A stretch of DNA of 64,000 nt, taken from Protoeuglena noctilucae (Eukaryota). The first letter of the stretch is position 1. Each line of letters opens with the position of its first letter. The position numbers and the translations under genes were made by a program. The notes beneath the pieces were generated by a model. That model was not told the DNA's origin. It saw only the letters and a list, made by a program, of their open reading frames with translations, and made no database searches. Positions 7,001 to 50,686 of this stretch are shown here, piece by piece. The stretch covers positions 1,116,001 to 1,180,000 of the forward strand of contig OY253668.1 in NCBI GenBank assembly GCA_958009085.1. The letters are read 5' to 3'.

Positions 7001-10000
7001 GGACGGAAACGCAGAGGTGAGAGCGCGTGGCATGGCAGGGTGCCGCACTGGTGACGCATGTGTGTACGTTGCTGCACGCCTTGCAGCGGTGGTCTTGGTC
7101 GTATCATGGGGAGTTGGAGTTTATGGATGAACATTCTGTGACCGGCCACTGGTGCAACTAGCTGGTTACCAACTCTTGACGTTGCGCTCTCCGCCACGCC
7201 TTGTGCAGGAGAACAGGGAGCCTGCTGAGGGAGGGAACGCCGCTGCGGCTGAGCCATCGCGGACCATGCGCCCGCCGCTGCCGCCGGGCCCACCTCCCTC
7301 CGAGCCCCCGCCGTCGCGACGGACGGTGGAGAGCCCGCCTGCGCAGGGCGCCATGGCGAGCCACATGTCATCCATCACAGAGGAGGGCGGCAGCGTGCAC
7401 GGGAGCGACCTCGCCAGCGCGGCGATGAGCAAGAGGGCCAGCGGGGTCGACCTGGACCACGGCAAGGGACCCCAGCGCCCGAGCGGCATCATCGTGGCGG
7501 GCATGGTGGTGGAGGACCGCGGGGTGATGCGCCAGGCCATCTCCGGCAAGGAAGAGCCGCCCGGCGCACCGGCAGAGGGGTCCGAGCACCCGCAGCTTCC
7601 GCAGGTGCCGGCGAGTGCCCCACCTGTGGCCGAGCCCGGCGCGCACCCGGCACCGCACCCCCAGGTGCACGCGCAGCAGCCGCCCCCGCCGCGGCAGGGC
7701 CACGGTCCCCCGCCGCCCCCGTCCGCGCCCGCCTTCGAGCCGCCCGCGACCGACAGTCCCCGTGGGAACCGCCACGCCGCGGCGGGGAGTGCGCCCAAGC
7801 ACGGCCAGCAGTGGCAGCCGCACGCACCCCCGCATGCGCCCCCACACGCGCCCCCGCACGCCCCGCCCGGTCCGCGGCCCACCATCCCGGGCATGCCTGG
7901 CGTCGTGGTGCCTCAGGGGCCGTTTGGTGCCGACGCGATGGGCCCAATGGGTATGGCACGAGGCCCTACGGTCCCCGGCACGATGCCTCCCATGGCGCGC
8001 ATGCCGGGCCCTGGGTCCCCGGCGGCGGTGCGCATGCCCGGGATGGCACCCGCGGGGACGCAGCACATGACAGGGACCAGCGTGCCTGCGATGAGTCGCT
8101 TGTTCCGACCGGGGGAGGCGCTGAGCGGAGCCATGCCAGGCACGGGGCCCATGGCCATGCCTGGGACGGGGCCCATGGCGATCCCTGGCGTGCCAAGCAT
8201 GGTGGCGTACCCCGGGATGCACTTCGCGGGCCCCCGCCCCGGCATGCCAGGCGTGGCGGGCTCGGTGCCGCCCAACATGGTGGCAATGCAGATGCAGATG
8301 CAGACTCAGGCGCAAGCACAAGCCCAAGCTCAGGCGCAAGCTCAGGCGCAAGCGCAGGCACAGGCTCAGGGGCAGGCGCACATGGGGTCGCCAGGGATGT
8401 CCGTCATGGCGGGGCAGTTCCCAGGCATGGTCGGCATGGCGTTGCCGATGATGCAACCGGACGGCACGGTTGTTATGGTGCCCGTTCTAGTGCCCCAGGG
8501 CATCTCCGGCAGCCCCATCTTACCCGGCATGGCCAGCGCGGCCGAGGGGACCGTCGGGGCGCCTTACTTCGTGTCGGGGGGCTACCCCGCCGGGATCACT
8601 CAGGTGCGCGTGGGGCTCATTGGTGCGCCGCTCGCTGAGATCCCCCGATGTCGCCTGTTGATCTCCCGCAACGCTTTCCCTGTTGGCTTTCCCTCCCCGC
8701 CATTGGCAGAGGCTGTGGACTGGGCCGGCCTTGTACCACGCATGCCCAGTTTCCTTGCAGCAACCCACTCCTCCCTGCAGTCACTCACGCTATGTCCCTC
8801 TTTGTTGTCCGTCACAGGGTCACATGGTGGCGGCCCACCTCATGGGCCACGCGCACCCCATGGCGCCCAACCACGCGACGAGCGGGCAGTCTCCCCGCTC
8901 CCGGCGCACGTCCATCGACTCCCCGGGCACTCCCCGCAGCCCGGACCGCTCCGCGCCGACCTCGCAGCGCCGCGGGTCGCACGGCGCGGCGTCCTCCCGG
9001 TCCCGCCGCGCCTCGTCGGCTCGCAACGACGCCGACTCCGGCAGCAGCGGCAGCCACGTCCGTCCCGAGCCCCACGCGGCGCAGCAGAGCCGACTGGGCG
9101 CGGCGTACGTGCGGGAGGAGCCCCCGGTCGCGGCTGAGGCCGAGTGGGCGGGCTCCGAGTCGGGTGCTTTGGACTACGTCGCGCCTCCTCCGCACGTCCA
9201 GCAGCAGATGCTCGAGGCACAGGCCAAGGCGCACGCGCACGCGCACCCTCACGTGCCCGGCCAGGCGCAGGCGATGGCGGCAGGAGCTGACCCGGGGCAG
9301 GGGCATGGGTACGGCCAGGGCGGGCATGCGCAGGGCGTGCCTGGGCCACCGCCAGCTCCCCCGGCCAGGGCAGACCAAGGCGAAGTCCCCGCCGCTGCCA
9401 GGGAGCAGCGGGGCGCACCGCAGCCGGCGGCAGCAGCGGCGACACCGGCGTCTGCGTCTGCCTCAGCGTCGGCAGCCCCGACGGCCATCCTGGCTCGCGG
9501 CTTCGTCCCGCCTGCGCCAACGCAGGCCCCGCGCCCGGCGCCGCCCGCGCCGCAGCAAGCGGCGCCCGCGCCCCCGCCCCCAGCAGCCACCCCGCCCGCA
9601 GTGGCCCACCCAGCTCCGGCCCACCCAGCCCCCGCACCGCCCAGCCGCGAGGCTGCGGCCCCGGCAGCCGACCCTGCCCCGCCGTCCGAGGGAGGGCACC
9701 CGCCGGGTGCGGAGCGGGGCGGTCGCAAGGCGGATGGGCAGGAGGGGCACCGCGGGGGAGAGCGCAGGGAACGCAGGGAGCGCGGGAAGGATCGTGACAG
9801 GGAGCGCCAGGACCGGCCTGACCGTGGGGACGCCCCCGGGAAGCAGGAGAAGGGAGCGACGGAGGCACCGGGTCCGAATTCGAACCCGAACCTGGGCGCC
9901 GCGGAGGGGCGGGGCCGAGGGGGGCGTGCGCGGGGCCGGGAGAGCGGAGACGCGAGGCGGCATGGCGGGGCGGAGGGGCCTGGGCCGCAGGGGCCCGGGC

Positions 10001-18943: not shown

Positions 18944-20101
18944 CTATGCCTTTGCGAGACCTGCCATCCCCGTCAGCGTGTCCCAAAGCCGCAAGACTCG
19001 GTCTTTGGAGTAGGCTGTGCCGGCCAGCCACAGGTGCTTGGACTCTGGCACGCGGTCTAGGTAGAAGGCCCCCTGCTGCAGCTCGCTTGCGCTTTGAAGC
19101 GCCAGGTACACGATGGTGTCGGCGCCTTCGGCCGGCGTTCTCATGCGCCCGCCTAGCTGCGCGTAGAAGCCCGGCATGGACGACCGCACGCCCGGCGTGT
19201 CGGTCCACCCGGGATGCATGCTGTAGAACGAAACCCGGCCGTCCGTTCCGTAGCGCCGCGCGAACTCCTCGCACAGCGCCACCTGCTGCCGCTTGTTCCT
19301 GCGAAGGGCATCAGAGGCACCGCCCGTCGCGGCGGAGTCGGCCGCCCCAGGGCTCACCCTGCCCTCATGCTCCGCCCACTCTCACGTACCGGGCGTACAC
19401 CTTCATGCCGTCAAACGGGCGCAGGTTGTCGGATTCCAGGTCGTCCACCTCCAGGCTCTCCGTCAGCATGCCGCCAGAGCTCACGAAGATGACGCAGCTC
19501 GGCGCCCCGCGCTCCAGGGCGGGCATCAGGAGGCGCGTGAGGGCGAACGTACCCAGCGTGTTGACGGCGAAGTTACTCTCGTGCCCCTCGTCGGTCAGAA
19601 CCCGCTGGTTCACCATAGCCCCCGCATTGTTGACGAGCACATTCACCCCGACGCCCTCGGCGTCCAAGCTGGCCGCGAGTTTGCGGACGCTGGAGAGGGA
19701 AGCCACGTCGCAAACCCGGAGCGACAGACGCGAGTCGTCCTCCAGGCCCGCATCCGCGACCAGCTGGCGAATCGCCTCGCGGCCTTTCCGCTCGTCGCGC
19801 ACCACGAGGACCACGCGCGCGCCCTCGCGGAGAAGGCCTAGGGACGCCGCGTATCCGATGCCCGAGTTGGCGCCAGTGACCAAGCAGGTCTTGCCGCGCA
19901 AATTGTCCTTGCCAAACAGCGACTGCAAGCGTCGGAGATCAACCCACGCTTGCGACCCCCAGCCGTCCATGGAAATGCGTTTTTTTGCATGATGGAGCCC
20001 CGCACCTGATCGAAGGCCTTTGCGTGACTCTCGTAGCCCCCGTGAGTGTAGTGCCGGAGCCCACGAACAAGGAACTGGACGCTCTTGACCAGTCCGAGCA
20101 T
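18944..20101 (-). CDS. Short-chain dehydrogenase/reductase, DHRS12-like
   Basis: GLRHYTHGGYE N-terminus, TGANSGIG Rossmann motif, LVNNAG, VSSGGM, YARNKRQQ (YxxxK across an intron), SMHPGWTDTPGV. 3 exons. Confidence 0.9.
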
Positions 20102-22662: not shown

Positions 22663-24262
22663 TCACTGCTGCTTGCACTCGGCGGGCTTCTCTTGCCCCG
22701 CGTTGCCCTTCGCCCCGTCGTCCTCCTCATCGTCGTCGTCCTCGTCCTCGTCCTCAGGGTCCCGGGCCTCACGACCTGGCGAGCATGGCAGGGGCGCGCG
22801 TGGGGCACCACCAACTCCCCCCGCGGAACTAGGACGGGCAGAACACCGCCCCGTTGCCCTCGGCAAGATAACGCAGTTGTTGTTTCTCTCCACGGTGGGG
22901 TCAGAAACTTACCAGGTACAAACAGAGTTCGTCATCGGGCAACGGGGCGACGGGGAGCGCTCAGGGAAGAATTGTGACGTCTCGGGAGCCAGAGGCCCCT
23001 CCGACATGTCTAAGTATCCTGCATTTCCGTCATCACGGCGCTCCCCGCCCAGTCATCGCGAGTCGCACGGCGCAGGCGGCTGTCAGCGGCCCCACCTTCC
23101 TCGCCCTCCTCGTCGTCGTCATCGTCGTCGTCCTCCATGTCCTCCAGCGCCTCCCCCGTGAACCACTTCACGGCGTTGGGGATGACCTCGTCGCGGATGG
23201 TCGTGCCCACGTCGTAGTGCTGCTCCAGCTCCATCTGCAGCTCCTCCATCTCGTCCTCGTCGGGCGCGTCGGCCATATCGGGGATCTGCGGGCCCAGCGG
23301 CGCCCAGGGTGCGGGTCAGCCCCGGAGGCCTGCACTGGCACGAGCCACAATGCAAGCGCTTGCGACCGCACCCGGGGCGGGTTGAAGAAGTTGAAGAAGC
23401 TGTCGGCCTTCTCCGTCTTGAACTGCGTCTTGCCCTTCTTCCCCTTCTTCTTCATCAGCTTCATCGTGATGTCCTTCCCCGCCGCCCACTCGATCTTGGT
23501 CCCCGTGCACTGCGCCAGCATGTCCTCGTCCTCCTCGGCCATCTCGTACGTCTTCTCCAGCACCGTGTTGGTGAAGTGCTCGTTCGGCGCAAACTCGAAG
23601 ACGAGTTTGAACCCCGGCGTCCCTTCCAACTTCTCGTCCTTGACGCTCCGGAGGTACTTGAGCACGTCGTGGTCCTTCTCGCCCATCATGGAAGCCACCT
23701 CGGGGTGATTGCGCAGGCACACGTACCAAAACTCGGGAACCCCGCGCACGTCGCCGTCCGCGCCCTGCACCTCCTCCGCCCCGTCCACAATCCTCTGCGC
23801 GCGCGCGGGAGGGCCACAACATTGCATCGCCCGCACGCTTCTTAGGGCGGCGCGCCCCGCGCCCGGCCGGCCCCGCGACCCCCGCACTTCTCGCCTGCCT
23901 GCGCTCGTACAGCGGCGTCATCAAGTTGCGATACTTCTCCTCCAGCGCCCGCGCCTCCTTCTCGTACTCCTCCTCCAGCCCATCGTGCTCCTCCTGGATC
24001 TCACGCAGCACCTGCGGCACACAGTCCAAAGACAGGTTACTCGATGCACAGGCTCGGTGCGAGCACGCGGGCACGCGGCGGGCAGGCCTGGGCTAAGCCT
24101 GACCTCGACACGCTGCTTGACGGCCTCGGGCAGGCCCTCGAAGTGCTGCTTGGCGAGGCCCGAGTCCATGCCCTGGATGTCGTTCAGCCGCTGCGCGATC
24201 ATCTCCTGGAACGCCGGGTTGCCCATCATGGCGTTTAGGTCGGCCTGGCGCCCGCCTGCCAT
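22663..24262 (-). CDS. NAP1: Nucleosome assembly protein 1 (histone chaperone)
   Basis: [70 protein letters not shown], acidic tail and C-terminal CaaX box CKQQ. Last intron is 22776-23095. Confidence 0.96.
22847..22949 (-). ncRNA. Intronic box C/D snoRNA with two guides (LSU A2640-equivalent and 18S U1206-equivalent)
   Basis: 13-bp perfect terminal stem (22847-22859/22937-22949). Box C ATGACGA (22935-22929), D' CTGA (22904-22901), D CCGA (22863-22860). Guides are antisense to the conserved rRNA sequences AAGATAACGCAG (LSU) and AAACTTACCAGGT (18S). Same strand as the host NAP1 intron. Confidence 0.88.
22951..23047 (-). ncRNA. Intronic box C/D snoRNA (D' guide to the 18S 5' region; D guide target not recognised)
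   Basis: 10-bp perfect terminal stem (22951-22960/23038-23047). Canonical box C GTGATGA (23036-23030) and box D CTGA (22964-22961). A 13-nt antisense to 18S CATGTCTAAGTAT precedes a D'-like CGGA. Confidence 0.82.
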
Positions 24263-45029: not shown

Positions 45030-45406
45030 CTCCCCCTACCCCCCTCTGCGTTGGAATCGGGCCAACAGCCCCAAGCCTGGATCAGGAGTGCCGTATCACG
45101 CGGCCGCTCTATCCGAAGGCAAAAGTGCGCTTGCGGTGTCGGGGGCGCGTGGGGGCGAGATCCGTCACTGCTGCTGCTGCCACTCAAGCACACCGGAGCT
45201 CGAGACACGCAATAAAGGACACGACCAGCACGCCTGGTGGCCCTGACAGGGCAGTTTCAGGCAGTCCCAGGCCTTCTCGAGCGGCGAGGTGGTCTAGTCT
45301 GTTCAAAACTATTGCTTGGCATCGCATGCATCCGTCCGTGCGGGGTCGCGTGTCGCTCCAGCCACCCTTCGACCTCCAAGGCGGCGATCGCGCGTGACTC
45401 TGGCGG

Positions 45407-47191: not shown

Positions 47192-48201
47192 ATGGCCGCG
47201 CTTCTCGGCGCGCAGTTCCTGCTCCAGCCCGCAAACACCGCGGCGCTGTGCAGCCTGGGATGCGTGGGCTTGACCACCGCAGGCGAGTGCACGTGCTCGC
47301 GACTAAGTCTGCCGTCACTCGCACGGCAGTTGCGCGCTTTGAGGATGCGCGCGATCCCCGCCGGCGTACCCGCATTCAACCGTGGCTCTGTGCATGAGCC
47401 CGGGGTGCCGACGGGATCCCCCGAGTCATCCCGCTCGACCGCATGATTGCTAGACAACTTGCGTCGGCTGCCGATGCAGCGTATGGTGCTTTCGTTCTGC
47501 CGGCTGGGGACACGGGGGTGTGGCAGCGCATCGGCTATCGATGTCGAGTCCCGCCCCCTCGCTGCAGTCCCTGCTTACAAGAGCTTCAAAGCCATCGAGT
47601 CGGGGAAGCCCGAGGACATGGCCAGCACCCTCCAGCTGTGGGGGACGCTGGCTCTGCTGCAACTGGGGGAGGCGGGCGTGAGTTCGGACGTTAAGCGGTC
47701 GAATTACTATCCGCACCTCAAGCTGGCGCTCCTGGCATACATTTTTTACAAGGAGAGCGACACGCTGACGTCCCTTTGGCGGTGAGCGCGGCAGGGGACC
47801 TCCAACCCTGCAGAGGTAGCCTGGCTCCGCTTGAGTAGACTTTCTTTTTCCTGCCCGAAGCCGCTACATCGCACCTATGCTGCGGAAATACCAGCACCAC
47901 ATCGACGTGACCGGCGAGCACGTGTCGACCGAGTGCAACGGGCTGGTGTCCCGCTACCGCGCCGAGATCGCATGGCTCGGGTGAGCTTATGAAGTGATGA
48001 TGGCGAGATGTGATCCATCTTGTCAAATACCTCGCCTGCCGCTGCCCAGCCGATTGAGTGCCTGCGCTCCAGTCGAGAGCGCACAACACTAGGGCGCCGA
48101 CTGCTCGCAGGGGTCAGGTGGAGCAGTGGAAGAGCTACCTGCACCACAAGTGGCTCGCCATCACCCAGGAGGCCGAGGAGCGCAGGGACAAGGACCAGTG
48201 A
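47192..48201 (+). CDS. HVA22/REEP (TB2/DP1) family membrane protein
   Basis: Exons 47192-47282, 47568-47781, 47861-47980 and 48111-48201 splice in frame, giving PAYKSFKAIES, LQLW, YYPHLKL and RYIAPMLRKYQHHID. Confidence 0.82.
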
Positions 48202-48307
48202 GACTTGCGCATGCACCCTAGTCCTGTGTCAGGCCCTCCCCGGCCGCGTAGAGACAGTTCGACTTGAAGCAGAGTTATTACAACATGCATCTCCCGCCGC
48301 CAGCGCG

Positions 48308-50092
48308 CTACTTCTTCGGGGGGCACACGATCAGCACCATTTGGTTCCCCATGAGCTTCGGCTCCTGGTCCACGGCAGCCTCCTCGCCCAGGTCCTTGAT
48401 GAACCTGTCGAGCATCTCCTGCGCCTGGTTCTTGAATTGGAGCTCCCGACCCCGCATCTGCGGCGAGGACAGGGCGCGGACGTGCATGGGGGTGGCGGCG
48501 CGTGCAGAGGGGCCGTCGCAGGCTGCGCCGAGGTGCTGGTGGTGTGCTCAGTACAGCGGGGAAAAGTTGTCTGCACAAGGCCGAGGCCTTGACTCAGATC
48601 TGTTGAGCTTGAATTATTTCCGTTCATCATCGCAGGAGCACCAGCGCTGGACGGGCCATGCCTCGGACACAAGCACGACTCATCAGGAGTCAGAAACGAG
48701 GAATGCCATAGACGGTGCATGAATGTCGTCATAGGCGAGGGCCGAGTCGAGCCCGCCGCCCCTCCCCGGCCGCGCGCGTCGTCCCCCGACCGCCCCACCT
48801 GGACCACGATCTTGACCTTGTTGTTCTTCTGAATGAACTTCTGCGCGCTCCTCAGGCGGACCTGGTAGTCGTGCACGTCCGTGTTGGGCCTGAGCTTGAG
48901 CTCCTTCATGTCTGCGCGGAGGGAGGCCGCCACGGTTCGCTCGAACGCGCGCACATGGTCGCTCTTGCACACCCCTGGCCACCACCCGCGCGCTCCCTCA
49001 CCCATGACGCCCGCCTTCTGCTTCTTCTTCGCGTCCTTATCCGCCTTCTCCTTCTCGAACTTGAGCTTGGACCACTCCACCAGCCGGCACACGGGTGGCG
49101 ACGCGTCGGGCGTCACCAGCACCAGGTCCACCTCCGCCTCCATCGCCATCTCCAGCGCCTGGCTTGTAGGCATGATGCCCAGCGGCTCCTTCTCCTCCCC
49201 AATCACGCGCACCTCCGGAAAGCGGATCTGCTCGTTCATCAGGTACCCCGCGCCCCTGCGGTCACGCGCGAGGAGAGCGTCGCTGCCCAGGGCCTCTGAC
49301 GCCGCGCCCGGCCGGATGGGCCGGGGTATCCCAGCCATCAGACAAATGCCTCGATGTCTACATTCCACGCGCCCGTGAATGAATGGATCGGAGCGCGCGT
49401 CGGACTCGTCATCTGGTTTCGTCATCTCGTGGCTGGTGCGGCGGGCGGCGCAACAGGCGGCGCGCACTCGCCTCTGCGACTGATCCCTCGGACGCGGCGT
49501 CCTCGGCCCCCCTCCGCTGCCGCCGGGCGGCCGACTCCCCCTCCCTGCGAGTCGCGAGCGAGCTACTCTTTGCATGCCGCGCATGCCTTCCAGCAGCAGA
49601 GGGAAGCAGCACAACGCCCCGGGCGACTCACCGGCGCTGTTCGGACGATATCCGCCTCGGCCAGACGGGCCCGCGAAGGGCCGGGAGCTCCGCTCCCCAT
49701 CCTCTCCCGACGACGCCCCGTCCGATCCGCTCTCCTGGTACCCCTGCGGCGCCGGAGACGAGACCCGCTGCGGCCCAAGCTTCGTCAACGCAATCACGGA
49801 ACAGGGGCGCGCGTCCCGCGGCGGCAACGCACCCCTCGCCCCTGGTAGGGCCCGCGCCCCCGGCCCGGCCCGCTGCCCCGGCCCCCGCGCCCGCCACGAC
49901 CCGGCACGGACTTGAACGGCCGCACGATCTGCTCAGACTCCGCTTCGGCGAGTATCAACAGGCCGCGCGCCGGCGGGTATCGTCGCAATGGCCTGCAATC
50001 GCGGGGCTGGAGTTCCTGGTCAAGCTGCGGGCGGCGGCCGCCGCCTGGGCTCCGAGCGCCGGGTAGCGTAAGCGCAGAGCGAGCCGAAACAT
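48308..50092 (-). CDS. Organellar translation initiation factor IF-3; snoRNA host gene
   Basis: MNEQIRFPEVRVI, VDLVLVTPDASPPVCRL, KELKLRPNTDVHDY..RL, KVKIVVQ|MRGRE; TAG stop at 48308. The 5' exons and start (MFRLALRLR... at 50092) are uncertain. Confidence 0.9.
48541..48642 (-). ncRNA. Intronic box C/D snoRNA with two LSU guides (G2391- and G2409-equivalent)
   Basis: Box C ATGATGA (48630-48624), D' CTGA (48597-48594), D CTGA (48551-48548). Guides are antisense to CTGTTGAGCTTGA and CAGCGGGGAAA, both from the conserved LSU segment CAGCGGGGAAAGAAGACCCTGTTGAGCTTGA. Lies in IF3 intron 48458-48798. Confidence 0.93.
48660..48736 (-). ncRNA. Intronic box C/D snoRNA, snR57-equivalent guide (18S G1572-equivalent)
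   Basis: Short terminal stem. Box C ATGACGA (48732-48726), D' CTGA (48693-48690), C' TGATGA (48685-48680), D CCGA (48666-48663). A 13-nt antisense to 18S AACGAGGAATGCC precedes D'. Confidence 0.88.
49331..49436 (-). ncRNA. Intronic box C/D snoRNA, U15-like (LSU A2281- and G2288-equivalent)
   Basis: 7-bp stem CCAGCCA/TGGCTGG. Box C ATGACGA (49425-49419), D' CCGA (49403-49400), D CTGA (49341-49338). Guides are antisense to CAAATGCCTCG and CTCGTCATCT, with an extra antisense to ATGAATGGAT from the same LSU region. Lies in GC-AG intron 49256-49471 of IF3. Confidence 0.93.
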
Positions 50093-50686
50093 TAAAACGT
50101 CGCTGGGAGCGCGCGGTTCGGCGAATCGGGCTCGCCAGCCGTCGCGGTTGGCCAGGCTAGCTCGTCCACTCACCTCCCCGCGCCAAGCGGCCTGGGCAGC
50201 CGGCACGTGCACGGCGCCCCGAGCGACGGGACCGGTTGGAGGGCGTGCATCGCTGGCGAGCGGTCGGTCCGCTGCGCTTCGCGCCTCCCTCGGGCCGGGC
50301 TCGGCCGCTACGAGCCACAGCAGCAGCAGAGGCCGCCAGCCAGGTCACGTACGCTTCCTGGAGCTCAAATCTCGCTTCTCGGAGACGGTTCGACGGTCAA
50401 GATGGCGTGGCTGGAACGCCGGGGAAAGCAGAGAGCACGACAAGCAAAACTCTAGCCGACACTCCCGAGTACGCGCTCTATTGGCGGGCGAGCAGGCGTC
50501 AGCGCCCCGAAAAGGGCTTCGGCACCTTTCAGTATGTTTCTGACGGACCGGCTGGGGCCCTCGTACTGCCATCGGCTTCCTTTGGGGCTGGAGGTATGTC
50601 ACAACGAGACCCAGATAGCCAGCGGGCCATGGACTTTTGACGTTCTCGCTTGCACAAGGAGTACGAGCTACCCGCTGTCTTCGCCC

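Follow-up and report, generated by a model that had tools for sequence, protein, structure and literature searches.

Why does a gene for a translation initiation factor of bacterial type carry two over-long introns? The question is raised by a 64,000-nucleotide (nt) stretch of DNA from Protoeuglena noctilucae (NCBI GenBank assembly GCA_958009085.1, contig OY253668.1, positions 1,116,001 to 1,180,000 of the forward strand), which we call the window and whose numbering is used throughout. On its minus strand, positions 48308-50300 hold a split gene for the bacterial-type initiation factor IF3. Our answer is that the two long introns of this gene are very likely to carry genes for small nucleolar RNAs (snoRNAs) of the box C/D class, in the sense orientation. 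An initial annotation, made from the DNA letters alone, had proposed three such units with C, D' and D boxes and terminal stems, and all three are present in the two introns. We would go a little further for units 1 and 2, which we are confident are genuine intronic box C/D snoRNAs. For unit 3 we go less far: it is probably genuine, and its variant boxes deserve separate discussion.

An IF3 gene with two long introns

The host was recognized by its domains. Pfam IF3_N and the two parts of IF3_C match on three minus-strand exons, IF3_C being split by an intron between profile positions 38 and 41 (matches at 48802-48912 for positions 3-38 and at 48311-48457 for positions 41-85). Judged by its sequence, the host is a nuclear gene of the organellar IF3 type, as had been supposed initially. 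Splicing was read from Logan contigs of marine metatranscriptomes aligned to 48100-50300 (runs X1, X2 and X3 of study P1 and run X5 of study P2). The parts of the gene are as follows.

48308-48457, minus: last IF3 exon, with the second half of IF3_C (positions 41-85, E 7.8e-11) and the stop codon TAG at 48308-48310; RNA joint 48457/48799, confirmed by the spliced protein P0002
48458-48798, minus: intron C, 341 nt, GT-AG, carrying candidate units 3 and 2; joint 48457/48799 in four of four runs
48799-48911, minus: IF3 exon with the first half of IF3_C (positions 3-38, E 9.8e-13); RNA joints
48912-49001, minus: intron B, 90 nt, GT-AG, devoid of snoRNA-like units; 90-nt skip in four of four runs
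49002-49255, minus: IF3 exon encoding IF3_N (match at 49003-49254, E 8.5e-28); RNA joints
49256-49471, minus: intron A, 216 nt, GC-AG, carrying candidate unit 1; joint 49254/49471 in X1, X2 and X3 (three of four runs)
49472-49544, minus: upstream IF3 exon, an Arg/Gly-rich linker; joints 49254/49471 and 49543/49631 in X1-X3

The RNA contigs splice out both long introns, whose coordinates and lengths had been given exactly in the initial annotation, and the spliced contigs from two studies establish these segments as true introns and not exonic sequence. The remaining introns measure 90, 87 and 181 nt in the RNA contigs, the last two lying further upstream. The joint of intron A has a three-letter ambiguity. 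Its 3' end becomes AG only with a shift of +1, and its 5' end is then GC; we therefore describe it as a GC-AG intron at 49256-49471. This placement preserves the reading frame (...DQSQR joined to GAGYLMNEQ), as in the transcript-derived protein P0113. A 212-nt GT-AG intron beginning at 49467 was considered and rejected, because 216 nt are missing from the RNA contigs and a GC-AG intron keeps the frame.

The spliced product corresponds to P0002 (166 amino acids) and P0113. This corrects a public protein prediction, P0001 (335 amino acids, 48331-49340, minus), which is a prokaryote-style open reading frame that begins inside intron A and reads straight through introns B and C.

Contigs in which intron C is unspliced, bridging both exon borders, occur in four of four runs at about 0.1-0.5 of the exon depth, contig depth being a poor measure. 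They may reflect slow splicing or retention of this intron with its two putative snoRNAs. No RNA contig covers intron A with unit 1 or the 90-nt intron, which is uninformative either way with assembled contigs.

Three box C/D units and their pairing with ribosomal RNA

Each of the three units has a terminal stem, and unit 2 is the only one whose C and D boxes are both fully canonical. Unit 1 lies in intron A.

49331-49436, minus: unit 1, box C/D snoRNA candidate resembling SNOR75, U15 and snR13 plus snR75 (by Rfam, guides and a homologue in the related locus L027)
49436-49430 with 49337-49331, minus: terminal stem of unit 1, 7 base pairs (bp), CCAGCCA with TGGCTGG
49428-49422, minus: C box GAGAUGA, with a single departure from RUGAUGA, at U
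49414-49405, minus: D' guide, 10 nt, followed by U and the D' box CCGA at 49403-49400
49389-49379, minus: accessory pairing element, 10-11 nt, GATCCATTCAT
49353-49343, minus: D guide, 11 nt, followed by U and the D box CUGA at 49341-49338

Units 2 and 3 share intron C.

48536-48644, minus: unit 2, box C/D snoRNA candidate resembling plant Z107/R87 (by Rfam RF00360 and guide pairing)
48644-48639 with 48541-48536, minus: outer stem of unit 2, 6 bp, CTGGTG with CACCAG; the adjacent stem is UGC/GCA, 3 bp
48631-48624, minus: canonical C box GAUGAUGA
48612-48600, minus: D' guide, 13 nt, with the D' box CUGA at 48597-48594
48576-48570, minus: C'-like GUGCAGA
48564-48554, minus: D guide, 11 nt, with the D box CUGA at 48551-48548
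48660-48736, minus: unit 3, box C/D snoRNA candidate with variant terminal boxes (by antisense to small-subunit RNA and conservation in L027)
48736-48734 with 48662-48660, minus: stem of unit 3, GCC with GGC, 3+3 bp
48732-48726, minus: variant C box AUGACGA
48707-48695, minus: D' guide, 13 nt, with the D' box CUGA at 48693-48690
48685-48680, minus: C' box UGAUGA, 3-4 nt from D'
48666-48663, minus: variant D box CCGA

Do these guides have anything to pair with? As stand-ins for the ribosomal RNA (rRNA) of the organism we used two eukaryotic ribosomal DNA (rDNA) contigs, L019 and L009, found in prokaryote assemblies by means of a pattern made from the two guide sites of unit 2, and we set their rRNA bounds with Rfam. 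The rDNA unit of L019 is complete, and a group I intron interrupts its large-subunit (LSU) gene; L009 holds a second unit, which is more divergent. Viral contigs scanned for rDNA gave no match.

Perfect antisense to these rRNAs over 10-13 nt (10, 11, 13, 11 and 13 nt against L019) is seen in five of the six guide regions, and it ends 1-2 nt before the box, so that both the pairing lengths and the spacing proposed initially hold on the stand-ins. The fifth-nucleotide rule then gives these predicted targets in L019, on the LSU or the small subunit (SSU).

Unit 1, D guide: LSU A2707
Unit 1, D' guide: LSU G2714
Unit 2, D guide: LSU G2817
Unit 2, D' guide: LSU G2835
Unit 3, D' guide: SSU G1572

The LSU targets are spaced by 7, 103 and 18 nt, exactly as are the yeast-equivalent positions A2281, G2288, G2391 and G2409. 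These four positions, together with 18S G1572, are the targets named in the initial annotation, and the assignments of yeast snR13, snR75 and snR57 agree with A2281, G2288 and 18S G1572 respectively; the LSU positions are numbered by relative spacing and literature and G1572 on the stand-in 18S. In both L019 and L009 a single LSU region pairs with the two guides and the accessory element of unit 1. The unit has the guides of the SNOR75/U15 group, for the A2281 and G2288 equivalents, and the accessory element as well, which pairs 21 nt downstream of the G target and is kept in the SNOR75 consensus. The two guides of unit 2 pair perfectly with the LSU of both stand-ins, one over 13 nt and the other over 11 nt (or 12, if one G-U pair is counted). 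The unit 3 guide is a perfect 13-nt antisense to L019 SSU 1569-1581, with target G1572, and pairs over 10 nt in L009.

How often would such matches arise by chance? We counted every 10-mer that is a complement of L019 rRNA and stops 0-3 nt short of CTGA or CCGA, and compared the count with that in 3000 dinucleotide shuffles. The two introns (557 nt) contain five such guide-plus-box matches. The shuffles contain 0.15 on average and at most three (in two shuffles); none of the 3000 reached four. Over both strands of the whole window (128 kb) there are 28.

A few other rRNA-complementary stretches lie beside CTGA or CCGA elsewhere in the window, at 45243, 15558 and 57843 on the plus strand and at 19314 on the minus strand. 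They are GC-rich and have no recognizable C box. Those at 19314 (minus) and 45243 (plus) are perfect 13-nt and 12-nt complements of 18S rRNA placed 2-3 nt before CTGA, and the former lies in a short intron-like stretch. All four may be due to chance in GC-rich DNA.

A separate kind of evidence comes from known families. Unit 1 aligns end to end with the plant SNOR75 model (Rfam RF02539) at 40.7 bits (E 2.4e-6 over 1.5 kb, 1e-4 over 64 kb), with weaker matches to snR75 and SNORD15, which belong to the same clan as SNOR75 (CL00045). Since this score is below the gathering score of 50 bits, we class unit 1 as a probable distant orthologue of SNOR75/U15 and not as a formal member of the family. 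Unit 2 matches RF00360 (Z107/R87) with E 2e-4 over 1.5 kb and 8.6e-3 over 64 kb; its 32 bits, too, fall short of a gathering score of 50. Both of its guides align with the consensus, in which AUUCAAGCUCAACAGA and UUUcCCGCUG..CUGAGC are matched. We know of no yeast counterpart of Z107/R87. Unit 3 has no significant family, its best match in a search to E 10 being snoR122 at E 4.3. The Rfam comparison envisaged in the initial annotation favours two of its three units, each below threshold, and leaves the third without a family.

The closest parallels are found in yeast and in the green alga Ostreococcus tauri. Both antisense elements of unit 1 recur in U15/SNORD15, the yeast pair snR13 and snR75, and plant SNOR75, with A and G targets 7 nt apart in the LSU. 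The unit shares its layout and the conserved accessory pairing element with the SNOR75 model, from which it differs in the C box GAGAUGA, the D' box CCGA and the score under gathering. In yeast the two guides reside on separate RNAs, whereas unit 1 has both on one. Yeast snR75, the guide for L2288, needs a conserved region of extra base-pairing that was validated experimentally (PMC3116282); snR13 guides L2280/L2281 (PMC5389607), and extra base-pairing has been validated for it too. The internal element of unit 1, as far as its sequence goes, fits this accessory-guide mechanism.

Two RNAs expressed by O. tauri share guides with the present units. Ot-CDsno42 carries both unit 1 guides and is annotated for 25S A2124/G2131 as SNORD15/snR13/U15; it lies in an intergenic cluster, unlike unit 1 in its IF3 intron (PMC7671301). 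Ot-CDsno50 carries the D' guide of unit 2 with 25S G2252 as predicted site, and lies in the first intron of an RNA acetyltransferase gene (PMC7671301). Its site is G2131 plus 121, and the same offset separates the corresponding targets of units 1 and 2. The guide stands beside the D box in Ot-CDsno50 and beside D' in unit 2. For unit 3 the parallel is yeast snR57, which serves 18S Gm1572 (PMC4344503) and so shares the position number of the target, counted on the stand-in 18S. Unit 3 is unlike snR57 in having its guide beside D' and not D, in its AUGACGA and CCGA boxes and in the lack of a sequence-family match. We also considered Ot-CDsno53 as a homologue of unit 3 and rejected it, its predicted target being 18S U1231.

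Conservation in a relative and the standing of unit 3

Are the units kept in related genes? A metagenome scan with the IF3_N exon gave 80 loci. The motif scan covered all 80, Rfam the five closest and the guide-plus-box scan 13 of them. One locus alone, L027 (3260 nt, 73% GC, IF3_N 68% identical), was found to have snoRNA units. Its homologue of unit 1, at 2462-2579, lies in the intron before the IF3_N exon and matches SNORD15 (29.5 bits, E 0.0046), with exact blocks of 15, 10 and 21 nt in common with unit 1. In the terminal stem of unit 1 there are two double compensatory changes between the two loci, A-U to G-C and A-U to U-A; these were read by eye, the MAFFT alignment misplacing the 5' stem. 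The homologue of unit 3 lies in the intron after ...IVQ, which is the position of intron C. It has an identical 14-nt guide, the C box AUGACGA, the D' box CAGA, the D box ACGA and a 9-bp terminal stem. Intron B is absent in L027. All five exact blocks of at least 8 nt that are common to the introns of the window and of L027 lie inside the units.

Conserved blocks in otherwise diverged introns could in principle be cis-regulatory elements for the splicing or retention of IF3, their likeness to snoRNAs being incidental, and the unspliced intron C contigs in all four runs would suit such a role. Against this, conservation coincides exactly with the segments that comprise a guide and its box; these are complementary to rRNA at the canonical spacing from the box, and they match snoRNA guides of plants, yeast and Ostreococcus. 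We give this explanation next to no credence.

In a further relative, known by protein sequence only (P0003/P0120, 63% identical), the coding sequence is uninterrupted where intron A would lie and continues through an intron after ...IVQ. In both proteins the read-through tail includes MAFLVSE, a peptide that could be encoded by the unit 3 guide followed by CUGA; the hint is a weak one, from protein sequence only.

Several points weigh against the view that the IF3 introns carry snoRNA genes. At gathering thresholds Rfam gives no match anywhere in the window. The pairing was tested on two rDNA contigs, to all appearance eukaryotic contaminants, standing in for the organism's own rRNA. The RNA evidence is that of assembled contigs, which are unable to show a product of 75-110 nt. 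Unit 1 (C box GAGAUGA, D' box CCGA) and unit 3 (C box AUGACGA, D box CCGA) have off-consensus boxes. For the guide on the D side of unit 3 the rRNA of L019 and L009 offers no credible target, and this guide is not conserved in L027. Among the five loci with at least 64% IF3 identity, L027 alone shows the motifs (units 1 and 3), and the scans of L026, L028, L029 and L037 found none. Finally, the L027 contig ends before any unit 2 site, and the comparison of unit 2 is thus outside its span.

Some of these points bear on unit 3 in particular. It might be a decayed relic beside two real snoRNAs: its C and D boxes may have lost the ability to bind Snu13, and it would then yield no stable RNA. The pair AUGACGA/CCGA retains the G-A pairs of the C/D motif but puts C opposite C where U-U is usual. 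The want of a significant Rfam match and of a target for the D-side guide would also be natural in a relic, as would an adjacent terminal stem of just 3 bp in the window. Against decay stands L027: amid an otherwise diverged intron it keeps the 13-nt guide together with the variant C box and the xCGA plus GGC end, flanked by a 9-bp stem, and its terminal boxes are AUGACGA and ACGA.

A second, independent intron bears on the same question. A gene for a nucleosome assembly protein (NAP; Pfam NAP E 3e-44) on the minus strand of the window has an intron of about 320 nt (about 22776-23095) with two box C/D candidates, both within 22844-23040.

23035-22961, minus: NAP intron candidate 1, fully canonical, with GUGAUGA, CUGA and a 12-pair stem
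22935-22860, minus: NAP intron candidate 2, with AUGACGA, CCGA and a 16-bp stem

The first has no target found in the stand-in rRNAs. The D' guide of the second matches the 18S of L009 with one mismatch. This second candidate is the one further case in the window of AUGACGA followed by CCGA with a flanking stem, where about 0.035 would be expected per shuffled window. Because the variant pair recurs in the NAP intron with a 16-bp stem, it looks like a working kink-turn (K-turn) in this organism. We regard a decayed unit 3 as unlikely, and hold that unit 3 is probably a genuine snoRNA with variant boxes. If so, the recurrent non-consensus pair AUGACGA/CCGA would escape standard snoRNA finders in this lineage.

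A convenient carrier or a functional partner?

If the units act as box C/D snoRNAs usually do, RNA polymerase II would transcribe the IF3 pre-mRNA, and Snu13, Nop58, Nop56 and fibrillarin would assemble on the C/D K-turn during splicing of each intron. After debranching, exonucleases would digest the intron as far as the terminal stems, and RNAs of about 75-110 nt would remain. Unit 1 is predicted to guide ribose methylation of the LSU A2281 and G2288 equivalents, aided by its conserved accessory element; unit 2 would serve the G2391 and G2409 equivalents, beside the peptidyl-transferase region, and unit 3 the equivalent of 18S G1572.

Why should guides for cytosolic ribosomes be made from a gene for organellar translation? 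The initial annotation suggested that the arrangement could link the two translation systems. The placement would then be a selected coupling of the guides to the transcription of organellar IF3, through which both systems are co-regulated. In its full form, guides for the peptidyl-transferase vicinity and the 18S 3' domain would be made only with IF3 transcription, and unspliced intron C would be a switch between mRNA and snoRNA. If true, this algal lineage would have its organellar translation capacity tied to the cytosolic one. Such an idea can appeal to L027, where units 1 and 3 hold the same IF3 introns despite 68% identity and the gain or loss of intron B, and to the unspliced intron C in the RNA contigs of all four runs. 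Nevertheless, a position shared by two relatives is expected by descent alone, and P0120 is uninterrupted across the position of intron A. The suggestion loses its support with the other hosts: the O. tauri RNAs with the same guides, Ot-CDsno42 and Ot-CDsno50, lie in an intergenic cluster and an RNA acetyltransferase intron, and the NAP gene in the window hosts two more candidates. We therefore consider selected coupling improbable, and its full form, with the switch, no less so.

What is known of other hosts points in the same direction. In O. tauri, 72 of 131 snoRNAs are intronic, with 33% of the hosts in ribosome biogenesis and 18% in RNA processing, so that about half of the intronic hosts are unrelated to either (PMC7671301). 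The arrangement in IF3 is like that of these intronic snoRNAs in its sense orientation, its protein-coding host, the presence of several snoRNAs per intron or in consecutive introns, and the greater length of the carrying introns. The supplementary file of that paper makes no mention of chloroplast, mitochondri- or translation, whereas the host here is an organellar translation factor, and IF3 is not among the hosts given there. Nor did we find any report of IF3 as a snoRNA host in the literature searched. A precedent exists in Arabidopsis, where a gene for a plastid development protein hosts snoRNAs.

Most simply, IF3 is a convenient expressed carrier, inherited within one algal lineage, and not a functional partner; nothing indicates that the organellar role of the host matters. 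Intronic snoRNAs and their clusters were reportedly described in Chlamydomonas by Chen et al. in 2008. Intronic box C/D snoRNAs with the present targets are already well known in plants and green algae, and what we report is ordinary beyond its value for annotation. That value lies in three unannotated predicted methylation guide RNAs for a marine green alga, plus two nearby candidates.

A few minor observations can be added. Complete eukaryotic rDNA units were met in assemblies labelled as bacterial metagenome-assembled genomes or isolates (L019/L021, L009 and L001; the group I intron of L019 is at 7524-7866), and they look like eukaryotic contamination of these assemblies. In another lineage that carries IF3 (63% identity), L072 at 2535-2555 (and identically L070, L087 and L089) has a 14-nt LSU complement and an 11-nt 18S complement, each abutting CAGA and 20 nt apart. 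These lie a few hundred bases upstream, on the strand that does not encode IF3, and may belong to an unrelated nearby snoRNA. At the other end of the host gene, one RNA contig (48110-48460) joins the last exons of a convergent plus-strand gene, with its stop near 48199, to the last IF3 exon; the 3' ends of the two genes, with the IF3 stop at 48308, are about 107 nt apart and are assembled together.

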